A stretch of 64,000 bases of DNA from Pocillopora verrucosa (lineage: Eukaryota), in assembly GCF_036669915.1 (NCBI RefSeq), contig NC_089320.1:15851874-15915873 (forward strand). The letters are read 5' to 3'. This document shows, one piece after another, positions 21,309-38,373 of the stretch. The notes beneath the pieces are model-generated. The model was not told the DNA's origin and made no database searches. It saw only the letters and a list, made by a program, of their open reading frames with translations. The translations under genes were made by a program, and so were the position numbers. The stretch's first letter is position 1; the number at the start of each line of letters is the position of its first letter.

Positions 21309-22126
21309 TTACGCCTCCGTGTCTCCAAAGTTTACTTTCTCATACACGTCGTCCTCTTGAACCACTATCTCCTCCGCTGGAGTATCGTAGGATCTTTGTT
21401 GAGTTCTTGGCGGCAAACACGGACGGCTGTCTTGCAATGCAGGAATAGTCGCGTATGTTGGATCCTCGTTGAAATTGTCTTGATCCCTTATCGGATTATC
21501 ACTATAAAACGGGTTTTCAAAAGACGGTGGTACCTCGTTCTTTTTAAGCACGGCACTTTCTTCATCAGTTGCTTCTTTCTCGTCAGTTCTTTGACGTCTA
21601 AGCTTCTTTGTCTGAGATGCGTTCGATGCTCGCACTTTAGACCTTGCACCTTTCAAGTAAGCGTTTGCACCTTTTCCAAGCGCGCCATCGCCTTCTTGGT
21701 GATTATCTATGTCGTTCACAAAAGATTTTCGAACCGGTGGGGACTTAGCATAACACGGATTCGACGCCCCCATAGGGGAAATATCTTGAAGTTCCATGTA
21801 GGTGTTGTTAGTGTGCGACACTCGCGGCGGAGGGGACATCTCATAGCGGGGGTTCACTGAACCCTTAGGGGTTACATCTTTAGGATCCGCGTAGGTGTTC
21901 TTGGTGTGAGATACCCGCCTCGAAGGGGGCTTTTCATACTGGTGTTTTGAAGCTCCCCGAGGGTGACATCCTTAGGTTCCGCGTAAGTGTGGTCTTCTTT
22001 ATTCTTCTTTTTGGCCGCCGCTATCTCATCCTCTATGGGCATATCAACCACCTTGGTGTAAATTGGATTGGATGCCTCGGCTCCGGCAGCATTGCCAGGA
22101 CTACTGTACAGAGGATTGTTTGTCAC
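21309..22126 (-). CDS. Adhesion-receptor terminal exon: cytoplasmic tail of ~30-aa tandem repeats carrying NPxY motifs (NPLY, NPIY, NPRY, NPCY, NPFY); the reading frame breaks (-1) near 21935-21945, first in-frame stop at 21872, repeat-consistent frame continues to TAA at 21309
   Basis: ttcttcAG acceptor phase 0 after the TM exon; two overlapping ORFs (21872-22126 and 21309-21857) are offset by one nt inside a tandem repeat. Confidence 0.6.
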
Positions 22127-23379
22127 CTGAAGAAAAGCAAGGCAAGATTAAACACATAAAAATTCCAGTAGGACTTTATTGGTCTGAAATGAATGAAAAA
22201 CGTGTCAGGTACTCGCCTAGCTACGACTTTTAACCGACAACTCATGGATTTCAAACGCACAGCTCTCATCCTTAATTCAACTCAACTTGGTATGATTTAG
22301 TTCAGAAGCTTATTTTTAAGTGAGAACAACAAAACGTACGGCCGATTAAGGCGAAGGAAAGTATTCCAAAAAAAAAGGACTCTGACAACTCGAAAAAAAA
22401 CAAACAAATAAACAAGCTACAACCTGAGGAGCGGGAAAACGCTAATGACCAAGTCGTGATTGGTTCTCGTTTTGCAGCTGATTGGTTGAGACGGTAGCAC
22501 GAGTTTTCCTGACCAATCACAGAGCGAAGTAACGCAAAATCGATGCGATCCCGGATCACTTTCCACACTCAATTGAAAATGGTTCTAAACACTATCAATT
22601 GCATCACTTGAAGACAAAATACTCGAAGACTACTTAGAAATAATCGAATGACAGATTATTACGCCATGTGTTTCAGACAGTTTCATTAATCATAAATTCA
22701 TCAAAATCTAACCTGGATATCGTTACGTTTGACAGCAGAAGTGGGATCCAAGTTGTTCCGTACCGATCCATCAGGTTCTTTCCTTAACTTCTCAGCCCAT
22801 TCCTCTCTCGATGGTCCTGACGTTAGCGCATTTCTATTGTCGCCAAAAACTGGGTCGGAGAAGTCCAAGTCTTCCCTGCCTGACTGGAAACGGACGCTAT
22901 CATGCTCGTTCTGTCAAATTAAAACGAGAATACGTCCAGAAGATGTTTGTGATTGGTTGGTTACAAATTTTAAAATTTTCTGTGAAACGAAAAAGGGAAA
23001 AAGCTTGATAGCGCAGTAATGATCTGATTCATTTTGATTCTATTAAACCTAAAAATATTAAAAATCCAAACTGACAGGGAGTAAACTAGCTGGCTATATA
23101 CAAGGCGTGACCCATGACTCAAACCCTTGAGCTCAACACTGTAACCATTAAGCCACGCGACCTCATATTTCCTTGGGGGAGTGTTCTTATCTGCTATAGG
23201 TTAAATACAGTGTAACAGACAGCTAGCCAATAACAGGTTTGCACCCATTGCGATACATCGAAAAGGCAACAAGGATATCAGATGCGACAGAGCAACAAGT
23301 ACGGCGCCACTAACACTGGAAAATCTCTGCCACGGCCGGGGCTGTCAATTTTTAACGTGTAATGTAAGTCAACTGTGAC

Positions 23380-23540
23380 TCACATATTGACACTGAAACC
23401 TGTGCCCAGTAGTTCAAAGAGTGGATAACGCTATCCAACGGATAAATCACTATCCAGAGGATAACTGATAAGAAAAAGTACTGCGCTATCCATCGGATAG
23501 CGATTTATCCAGTTGAGAGCGTTATTTAACCTTTGAACAA
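23380..23540. repeat. Dispersed repeat with 'GGATAAATCGCTATCCA' inverted-repeat cores (copy 1); copy 2 at 24440-24600
   Basis: …gctatccaacggataaatcactatccagaggataa…cgctatccatcggatagcgatttatccagttgagagcgttatttaacctttgaacaaccggggccag… vs …ggataaatcgctatccagccgac…cactatccaccggaaagatatttatccagtgcatgg…ccttcgaacaactgggcccagg…. Confidence 0.55.
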
Positions 23541-37500: not shown

Positions 37501-38252
37501 TCTCAAGGGTCTCCACATTTAATAGTTTCATCAGTGAAAAAGAGTTAGGTACTAGGTTAGAGTTATGGCCAATCAGAGCACGCATACTCCCTCAAAACCT
37601 TCCCAAACCAACCAGTTTTTCCAACTGTAAATATTTTTAAAAAGCATTTGACAAACCTCATTAAACTAAGCGGCTAACTGATGATAAATAACATGACATA
37701 ACGACCAGCGCCGTCAAATAGAACGAAATTGGACCTTAGAGAATAACTAAATGTTCCGCTTAGCCAGAGAGGAAGATCCCCAAAAAAAAACCTTCCGTGA
37801 CGAATGATATGCCGACAGGAAGAAGAATTGCAATCATCCGTACGGTTACGTTGATTTTAGTCCAAAAACTTATACAAGGAAGAATCTGCTCTTGCAAGCC
37901 GTTACAAGTCGCGCCAGCTTCCAAAAGCTTTAACAAGAAATGTACTCAGAGAATCCCAAAATTTTGCTTGAACTTTTCAAACTCGTCTAACTTCACGTTG
38001 CATCGATTGGGAAAAATTTAAACTTAAAAGAGTTGTACAACAAAACATTTTGATAGAGTTTAAAACAAGTTTTAAAAACTATTAAACTCTTAAGTTAAGT
38101 GGTTTATGATCGCTTTGTCGATAAAAGTAGCCTGAACGGTTTAATGCGGTCGTTAGATAAAGGAAGTATTTCTCAAAGAACATGGATCAAACCACTGATA
38201 ATATGATGACGGGCATAAATTAAGTACGTATGTTTTCTTTCGTTTTACTCAC

Positions 38253-38373
38253 CGGAGACAACGCAGTTTTGAGGCGGGGGTGGTGTCCATCGCCTCCTCC
38301 GTCTTCTTCTCCATGCCTCGCCTTCCGTGATTAACACCAAAATCAACAGGGGAATGATAAATCGTCGCTGCAT
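38253..38373 (-). CDS. Adhesion-receptor gene exon 1: signal peptide MQRRFIIPLLILVLITEGEA followed by WRRRRRRRWTPPPPQNCVVS
   Basis: ATG at 38373; hydrophobic h-region; CCG|GTGAGT donor (phase 1) matching the phase-1 acceptors of all downstream extracellular-domain exons. Confidence 0.6.

Follow-up and report, generated by a model that had tools for sequence, protein, structure and literature searches.

To our knowledge, the non-classical cadherins of cnidarians are known almost only from genome surveys. One of these, by Hulpiau and van Roy (2011), counted 16 cadherins in Nematostella, among them "cadherin-related proteins", according to the part of 10.1101/488270 that cites it. Among the closest described systems to the gene reported here are Protocadherin-15 (PCDH15), cadherin-23 (CDH23) and CDHR2, with which its predicted product shares a long Ca2+-linked cadherin stalk with some non-canonical linkers, a membrane-adjacent domain (MAD) and the lack of a catenin-binding tail. 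The SEA-like domains of PCDH15 and CDHR2 can replace the regulatory region of Notch as contact-dependent proteolytic switches (PMC6586460). The gene lies on the minus strand of a 64,000-nt stretch of the coral Pocillopora verrucosa (RefSeq assembly GCF_036669915.1, contig NC_089320.1, positions 15,851,874 to 15,915,873), hereafter the window. Our reading, to which we give a probability of roughly 0.7, is that the product of this locus is a type-I membrane protein, an adhesion or matrix receptor belonging to a family of cadherin-related proteins in cnidarians, and that the copy in the window has most likely been inactivated recently.

Results

The intact gene encodes, in order, a signal peptide, a W-Arg7-W-Pro4 stretch, a thrombospondin type-1 repeat (TSP1), an EGF module, a calcium-binding EGF (cbEGF), an eight-Cys Sushi-like module, ten cadherin repeats (CA1–CA10), two EGF modules, a MAD/SEA-like domain, a transmembrane (TM) helix and a tail. 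Our starting material was a set of minus-strand open reading frame (ORF) fragments at 21.3–38.4 kb with TSP1, EGF/cbEGF and cadherin Pfam domains, in a window of approximately 38% GC whose closest public relatives are stony-coral sequences, the named protein relatives coming from Desmophyllum pertusum. From GT–AG sites and frame continuity we built a chain of 16 exons with canonical GT–AG at every junction, with exactly the two end points that a first-pass annotation of this DNA had given (Table 1). Three scaffolds from Tara Pacific coral samples (L001, L003 and L004) match the window at 97.7–99.6% nucleotide identity. With the same exon boundaries, L003 (exons 3–4) and L004 (exons 5–16), each 98–99% identical to the window at the nucleotide level, yield an uninterrupted ORF of 1,910 codons with a single terminal stop. 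In the window the same chain ends at codon 219, at a TAA in exon 3, so the earlier claim that the exons join in phase into one ORF fails for this copy. Nor are there 17 exons, as had been proposed: the stretch containing the TAA is a single exon in relatives (cDNA L002, ORF P0001), and the seventeenth was most likely produced by dividing exon 3 at the stop. A search of the window for a second copy of the receptor gene was negative.

Transcript evidence comes from a related coral. Contig L002 is intron-less over exons 1–7 and runs in a single frame from the start codon via WFRRRRRRRWSPPPP through TSP1, EGF, cbEGF and CA1–7; beginning at the signal peptide, this frame spans residues 37–870 with 66% identity. 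It is a cDNA contig, and it documents transcription and splicing of the gene in that relative. Since the intron-less L002 joins the TSP1/EGF and cadherin parts in frame, the two are on one mRNA there, and the earlier concern that they might belong to separate mRNAs is answered for that coral. The junctions from exon 3 through exon 7 are reproduced by the spliced sequence P0006 together with L002, and the Desmophyllum models P0047 and P0048 are collinear with exons 6–15. In the Tara-based model the intron phases are, in order, 1,1,0,1,1,1,1,0,1,1,1,0,2,1,0. Thus 10 of the 15 introns are in phase 1, rather than all of those in the ectodomain as first annotated: introns between domains are in phase 1, and the five that lie inside a domain or after the TM exon are in other phases. 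Exon shuffling fits this structure because the between-domain introns are in phase 1. Separately, read-through of the exon 15 donor (23624–23636), with the last intron kept, would end the protein in ...RRKYKKAKVNRS followed by a stop, nearly tail-less; RefSeq likewise lists a short-tail isoform X2 for Nematostella, and a conserved tail-less isoform is possible.

The first-pass annotation had described a signal peptide, an Arg7 stretch, a TSP1 and cbEGF ahead of at least nine cadherin repeats, and then EGF modules, a single TM helix and a tail of NPxY motifs. Each of these elements was recovered, and the cadherin repeats number ten. The N-terminus is signal-peptide-like and continues as W-R7-W-T-P4. 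Pfam recognises the TSP1 (TSP1_spondin/TSP_1), the EGF modules that follow it (FXa_inhibition/EGF_CA/cEGF), the cadherin repeats (Cadherin, 129.8 bits, four significant stretches) and the EGF modules near the membrane (hEGF/EGF). A W-Arg(4-8)-x-Pro(3-5) stretch between signal peptide and TSP1 is kept in stony corals, a sea anemone, an octocoral and a jellyfish (P0013, P0206, P0221, P0266, L002); it could be a convertase site, a glycosaminoglycan-binding site or something else.

Two modules had escaped the first annotation. One is the juxtamembrane MAD/SEA-like domain, which contains the RKRR motif; the other is a Cys-rich module that separates the cbEGF from CA1. The Cys-rich module is approximately 105 residues long, conserves eight Cys and one invariant Trp, and runs directly into YYCRR-NDPP where CA1 starts. 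It scores 17.2 bits against Pfam Sushi and its mollusc counterpart 19.4 (gathering cutoff 20.7), with the Cys/Trp pattern conserved. Its structural model is β-rich, with a predicted local distance difference test score (pLDDT) of 54–88, and a sequence search of the PDB with this module returned nothing significant.

The ten cadherin repeats, of 100–130 residues each, are spread over 9 exons. A linker of the DxN[DE]xP type precedes eight of the ten, counting TNDPP before CA1. Between repeats, the linkers from CA1–2 to CA7–8 are canonical (7 of 9), and those of CA8–9 (VISEYQP) and CA9–10 (IIDDRPHP) are degenerate. On its tandem repeats and Ca2+-binding linker motifs, the predicted receptor belongs to the cadherin superfamily, in the cadherin-related branch. 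The fold of CA1 is closest to those of PCDH15, CDH23 and CDHR2. The Pfam Cadherin_4 model, a bacterial cadherin-like model, also matches the repeats, and outside Cnidaria many bacterial cadherin-like, VCBS and RTX proteins match with better E-values than bilaterian cadherins; these bacterial matches probably reflect the composition of the databases.

The juxtamembrane module is approximately 150 residues long. When stony corals, Nematostella and Xenia are aligned, its cysteines are paired, R-x-R-R is invariant and the motif Y-[VA]-E-[IL]-L is present. In an AlphaFold2 model (pLDDT 78.9, predicted template-modelling score 0.73) it has the topology β–α–loop–β–β–α–α, and the RKRR falls in the sole low-confidence internal loop, between α1 and β2, which is disordered (pLDDT < 50). 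This model identifies the module as a predicted ferredoxin-like MAD/SEA-like domain between the last repeat and the TM helix. Since the juxtamembrane profile found no significant sequence match in the PDB, the relationship to MAD and SEA domains is one of fold level only. The TM helix (Kyte–Doolittle hydropathy peak 3.07) is the sole hydrophobic membrane segment.

The tail comprises 280 residues with no Pfam domain; Cadherin_C, which binds p120 and β-catenin, has no Pfam match there at E ≤ 1. It contains five NPxY motifs (NNPLY, SNPIY, VNPRY, SNPCY and FENPFY), the last in the LDL-receptor form FxNPxY, as well as three TY[AM]x[PL] motifs and the related PTYATIP. A 31-residue internal repeat reads through only in the intact sequence. 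The intact tail exons of two other corals (P0357 and P0361) keep the tail motifs, and NPxY motifs recur in Xenia (FPNPVY, LENPLY) and Nematostella (RNPIY, YDNPTY); the FxNPxY form takes the variants FENPFY, FDNPFY, FPNPVY and YDNPTY across the family.

The family was delimited with an N-terminal profile compared with 1.84 billion representatives. Most matches were to multi-cadherin proteins, and only those covering the whole profile in one stretch were informative. A C-terminal homology search returned mostly EGF proteins, along with the Tara contigs and the intact tail exons. Orthologues were found in Desmophyllum (OS493_033483, OS493_033486 and OS493_018416), Nematostella (XP_048577481 and XP_048577480, "protocadherin Fat 4 isoform X2/X1", and the older model A7SV36), Xenia (XP_046847457, XP_046847458, XP_046847460 and XP_046847643, named "fat-like...", "cadherin-23-like" or "protocadherin Fat 4-like") and the scyphozoan Sanderia malayensis (EP00794_P000603). 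One form of the automatic names given to the Xenia and Nematostella proteins in RefSeq is "fat-like cadherin-related tumor suppressor homolog". All four genera share the W-poly-Arg-poly-Pro start, TSP1, EGF, the Cys-rich module and approximately ten cadherin repeats; complete members also share RxRR with YVEIL, the TM helix and the NPxY tail. Judged by homology, the family has so far been found in cnidarians, namely stony corals, a sea anemone, an octocoral and a scyphozoan. A protein of the mollusc Nucella has the same order of modules (TSP1×5–EGF–Sushi–cadherins) at 23% identity and is a weak collinear look-alike. The Desmophyllum pertusum models P0013, P0047 and P0048 are fragmented, with the N- and C-terminal halves annotated as separate genes on one contig, and the paralogue model P0047 finishes with the TM region translated out of frame. 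Searching by accession, or for TSP1, cadherin and cnidarian together, we found no published description of the family, which may be listed as uncharacterised in Hulpiau and van Roy (2011).

The copy in the window cannot encode the receptor, as it carries one nonsense codon and six private 1-bp frameshifts (Table 1). All seven lesions are absent from every Tara scaffold that covers them (L001 and L003 for the stop, L003 and L004 for the indels), and the Tara readings agree with the orthologues at each site (QPNKKFGE, SAVLNCTIVIS/EYQP, EEALIPIAII, KVPLQYSDF, HCEKNIDEC and DVTLGGASKHQYEKPP). No GT–AG intron could skip the TAA, as the stretch from 33729 to the stop has no GT donor, and in seven species a single ORF continues across the site. 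Lesions 2 and 3 compensate each other, with 12 out-of-frame codons between them that span an intron. A phase 0/0 junction of exons 9 and 10 (...NVPLLFQ/SISRQMK...) was discarded as an artefact of these two indels, the true junction being in phase 1 (...NCTIVIS/EYQPTDE...). Extensions of C runs at ~26275 and ~21963 were likewise rejected as repairs: they restore the frame, but the Tara scaffolds have instead an extra A (PLQYSDF) and G5.

Table 1. Coding exons, tail motifs and disrupting changes of the receptor gene, numbered from the first letter of the window
Feature	Position	Strand	Support or comparison
Whole coding span, 16 exons, ATG (38373) to end of stop codon (21309)	21309..38373	-	exon chain; intact in L003/L004
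Exon 1: start codon, signal peptide, W-Arg7-W-Pro4 (Arg7 38290–38310), phase-1 donor	38253..38373	-	
Exon 2: TSP1 (34413–34535) and six-Cys EGF-like module (34338–34415, last Cys in exon 3)	34337..34537	-	Pfam TSP1_spondin 2e-11, TSP_1 1.7e-5
Exon 3, 1,511 nt: cbEGF (33790–33915), eight-Cys Sushi-like module (33466–33777), CA1–CA3, first half of CA4	32419..33929	-	
Exon 4: second half of CA4, phase 0 in, phase 1 out	31465..31702	-	GQFV/VTDPDN junction in spliced P0006/L002
Exon 5: CA5	30655..30954	-	Pfam Cadherin 3.5e-9; L002 block 30956–30655
Exon 6: CA6	29947..30249	-	L002 and P0047 alignments
Exon 7: CA7	29294..29617	-	Pfam Cadherin 2.9e-5; L002 and P0047 alignments
Exon 8: first part of CA8	28378..28619	-	P0047 residues 198–278, 77% identity
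Exon 9: remainder of CA8; lesion 2	27708..27851	-	
Exon 10: CA9, degenerate linker; lesions 3 and 4	27040..27344	-	orthologue sequence EEALIPISIISKGNMS
Exon 11: CA10, Cys-containing, degenerate; lesion 5	26157..26548	-	
Exon 12: EGF 1 (25833–25922) and start of EGF 2; lesion 6	25795..25960	-	Pfam hEGF/EGF
Exon 13: remainder of EGF 2 and Cys-knot start of membrane-adjacent domain	25100..25248	-	
Exon 14: β1–α1 of MAD/SEA-like domain	24771..24898	-	
Exon 15: RKRR (24005–24016), remainder of MAD, TM helix (23660–23728), RRKYKKAK stop-transfer	23636..24024	-	
Exon 16: 272-codon cytoplasmic tail and stop; lesion 7	21309..22126	-	intact 272–273-aa ORF in L003, L004, P0357, P0361
NPxY motifs (last, FENPFY)	22106–22117, 22058–22069, 21843–21854, 21750–21761, 21504–21515	-	
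Lesion 1, exon 3: in-frame TAA for conserved Lys codon AAA	33595–33597	-	AAA in L001, L003; orthologues ...QPNKKFGE...
Lesion 2, exon 9: −1 bp	~27727	-	L003/L004 extra T, SAVLNCTIVIS; Desmophyllum SAVLNCTIVVS
Lesion 3, exon 10: +1 bp	~27326	-	
Lesion 4, exon 10: +1 bp	~27112	-	
Lesion 5, exon 11: −1 bp	~26267	-	tblastn frame switch 26268/26274; Tara GCAATAC gives KVPLQYSDF
Lesion 6, exon 12: −1 bp, A7→A6	~25832	-	
Lesion 7, exon 16: −1 bp, G5→G4	~21959	-	Tara G5, DVTLGGASK

Directly upstream of the cadherin gene, at 39055–43337 (+), lie three HELB/PIF1-like SF1 helicase ORFs (AAA_30 and AAA_19, with WHD_HELB in the Tara copy), all intact and with 99% identity to L001. An intact 1,181-aa ORF of a long interspersed nuclear element (LINE) with Exo_endo_phos and RVT_1 occupies 47903–51448 (-) and may be a young retrotransposon. 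The segments 52577–57340 and 59271–64000 form a 4.8-kb tandem segmental duplication of 97.1% nucleotide identity, each copy holding an intact, intron-less 311-aa ORF for a rhodopsin-type G-protein-coupled receptor (GPCR; 53231–54166 and 59926–60861, both +; 98% aa identity, Pfam 7tm_1). Interspersed repeat copies of 120–145 nt and 74–75% identity (23406–23550 with 24447–24591; 22459–22578 with 43546–43665) occur within introns 14 and 15 as well as in the DNA upstream of the receptor gene. The flanking genes include an exon of a TIAM-like RhoGEF at 1984–2385 (+; Tiam_CC_Ex, 4.6e-31) and calcipressin exons at ~14768–15899 (-), the protein of which is 100% identical to that of L003.

Discussion

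The layout of this receptor places it beside PCDH15, CDH23 and CDHR2 and at the same time separates it from them. Where those proteins have the EC1 handshake interface of the tip link, the coral receptor has a TSP1–EGF–cbEGF–Sushi-like head before CA1. It differs in further respects: two EGF modules separate its last repeat from the MAD, the MAD itself contains a furin-type RKRR, the tail is rich in NPxY motifs, and the MAD sequence is only 8–9% identical to theirs. With ten repeats and a head, as against 11, 27 and 9 repeats with a free EC1, and with an unrelated tail, it is not an orthologue of PCDH15, CDH23 or CDHR2. The furin-type site within a SEA-like fold recalls the negative regulatory region of Notch (HD/SEA-like, furin S1), from which the receptor differs in lacking LNR modules and the ankyrin/RAM intracellular domain, and in showing no evidence of ADAM or γ-secretase cleavage. 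In the LDL-receptor family, MEGF10/Draper/CED-1, integrin β and APP, as here, a single TM helix is followed by at least one [F/Y]xNPxY. In those receptors this motif docks adaptors with PTB domains (Dab, ARH, Numb, GULP, talin). Unlike those receptors, the coral protein has an unrelated ectodomain and a tail of five NPxY motifs plus TYxxP repeats, for which adaptor binding is a prediction.

The first-pass annotation had held that the layout is not that of FAT, Dachsous or the protocadherins and is closer to the lineage-restricted cadherin chimeras of early-branching animals, and on both points we agree. The likeness to hedgling and other non-bilaterian chimeras, which occur only in early-branching animals, lies in the mixing of cadherin repeats with unrelated extracellular modules. 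Hedgling itself has been described as FAT/Flamingo-like (PMC12549020). Its Hh N-terminal domain and VWA, and Ig modules, have no Pfam match in the receptor, the N-terminus of which is TSP1/EGF. Equally, there is no Pfam match to the GAIN, HRM or 7tm_2 domains of CELSR/Flamingo, and a single hydrophobic segment is present; nor to the TSP_3 and TSP_C domains of thrombospondins, with just one TSP1 repeat being found. The classical cadherins (types I–IV) differ from the receptor by their Cadherin_C, Dachsous by its approximately 27 repeats and no other modules (against ten repeats plus TSP1, EGF and MAD), and the clustered and δ protocadherins by having six to seven repeats alone, mostly in one large exon (against ten repeats over 9 exons with TSP1, EGF, Sushi-like and MAD modules). 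The known chimeras are confined to early-branching animals, and the cnidarian distribution of this family so far agrees with such a restriction.

The names in RefSeq raise the question of whether the gene is instead a cnidarian FAT4 or FAT-like protocadherin that acts with Dachsous in planar polarity. Beyond the names "protocadherin Fat 4", "fat-like cadherin-related tumor suppressor homolog" and "cadherin-23-like", the large type-I cadherin-superfamily form, with cadherin repeats followed by EGF modules and one TM helix, is FAT-like. Nevertheless, the receptor has ten repeats rather than approximately 32–34, Laminin_G, which defines FAT and FAT-like proteins, has no Pfam match in it, the TSP1/EGF/Sushi-like head is missing from FAT, and the tails are unrelated. 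Against solved structures the cadherin region shows only generic similarity (clustered protocadherins, CDH23 and CELSR, 1e-16 to 1e-10), and Fat4 EC1–4 is absent from the PDB sequence matches at E < 1e-5. Moreover, according to bioRxiv 10.1101/488270, where it cites Hulpiau and van Roy (2011), FAT and FAT-like exist as separate genes in cnidarians, and we consider FAT identity very improbable. That the exon chain merges two neighbours, a secreted TSP1/EGF protein and a separate cadherin receptor, is scarcely credible. The 3.7-kb first intron, the separate TSP1 exon and the splitting of the Desmophyllum locus into OS493_033483 and OS493_033486 could be taken to favour a merger, but CA1–4 lie in the same exon as the cbEGF and the Cys-rich module, the junctions match in phase 1, the full chain is present in the RefSeq models of Nematostella and Xenia, and the L002 cDNA runs across the supposed boundary from the signal peptide to CA7.

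Whether the lesions belong to the animal or to the assembly is a closer matter. The gene might be functional in the source animal and the seven lesions be local sequencing or assembly errors, for instance from an unpolished long-read consensus over 21.9–33.6 kb; we regard this as possible and somewhat improbable. All six indels are of a single base and at least half lie in A, T or G runs (T2→T3, A7→A6, G5→G4), as sequencing errors would, and the three wild samples are intact. Compared with the intact haplotypes, the window shows a ratio of non-synonymous to synonymous differences (pN/pS) of 0.34, as in a constrained gene, and the window lineage has no significant non-synonymous excess (9 synonymous and 12 non-synonymous private changes against 10 and 6 private to Tara; Fisher p = 0.32, an underpowered polarisation). 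The nonsense change, from A to T, is on the other hand atypical of long-read errors, and three of the six indels lie in runs of just one or two bases. In addition, the window keeps intact five neighbouring ORFs, 937 codons in all, that it shares with the Tara scaffolds, as well as the 1,181-aa LINE ORF and the two GPCR ORFs. The 7,170 nt upstream differ from L001 by only 2 indels, a rate that predicts at most approximately 1.6 error indels in the coding sequence against the six observed. Window-private indels number 6 in 3,660 nt of exon and 21 in 8,501 nt of non-exon DNA, and those private to Tara 1 and 17, respectively. The intact neighbouring ORFs, the two upstream indels and the alike exon and non-exon densities argue against a uniform assembly error rate. 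Conversely, the pN/pS of 0.34 and the lack of significant relaxation in the window lineage speak against the copy having long been a pseudogene. Both sets of numbers are compatible with a recent loss of constraint, and also with a locally poor consensus. On balance we lean slightly towards a real and recent inactivation, as an inactivated allele or a lineage-specific pseudogene.

Other observations weigh against our overall reading of the locus, in addition to the constraint and the error-like form of the indels. The Cys-rich module is below threshold as a Sushi domain, the transcripts come from a related coral at approximately 66% identity rather than from this species, and furin cleavage, Ca2+ binding and PTB-adaptor binding are predictions from motifs and fold.

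We propose the following model for the intact receptor. The head, formed by the TSP1, EGF, cbEGF and Sushi-like modules, would bind putative ligands and would sit atop the ten-repeat cadherin stalk, where the DxNDxP linkers from CA1–2 to CA7–8 would bind Ca2+. As the last two linkers are without the canonical Ca2+-binding motif, the last part of the stalk is probably flexible. The two EGF modules and the ferredoxin-like MAD/SEA-like domain would then lead from the stalk to the membrane. The conserved R-x-(K/R)-R, RKRR in this gene, lies in the exposed, low-confidence MAD loop and is probably cut there by a furin-type convertase, and the cleaved halves may stay together non-covalently, as in the S1 processing of Notch. 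Because the SEA-like domains of PCDH15 and CDHR2 work as switches (PMC6586460), a processing or switch role for the MAD of this receptor is a reasonable inference by analogy. Finally, the presence and conservation of the NPxY motifs suggest that the tail recruits PTB-domain adaptors, which would lead to clathrin endocytosis, signalling by tyrosine phosphorylation, or both.

The architecture is real and conserved, and it falls within the cadherin-related receptors rather than constituting a categorically new system. The gene is not unique to this genome, since orthologues are already in RefSeq and UniProt under misleading automatic names; "protocadherin Fat 4" in particular could distort comparative counts of FAT genes. 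A broader reading, which we put forward tentatively and do not favour, is that these proteins form a distinct, ancient and uncharacterised family, with a TSP1/EGF/Sushi-like head, ten cadherin repeats, a furin-cut MAD and an FxNPxY tail, that is present throughout Cnidaria and possibly in lophotrochozoans (Nucella) and that couples matrix or cell binding to Notch-like force-sensitive processing and LDLR-like endocytic signalling, the window holding a natural null allele. The disrupted copy is either a flag of assembly quality or a natural loss-of-function allele in a reef coral. The intact receptor would bring together in one protein a matrix-type head, the MAD of the hearing cadherins with a Notch-like furin site, and an LDL-receptor-like FxNPxY tail, and the family would be tractable in Nematostella (XP_048577480). 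If the proposed mechanism holds, regulated processing of the ectodomain and PTB-adaptor signalling on cadherin stalks would predate the bilaterians.

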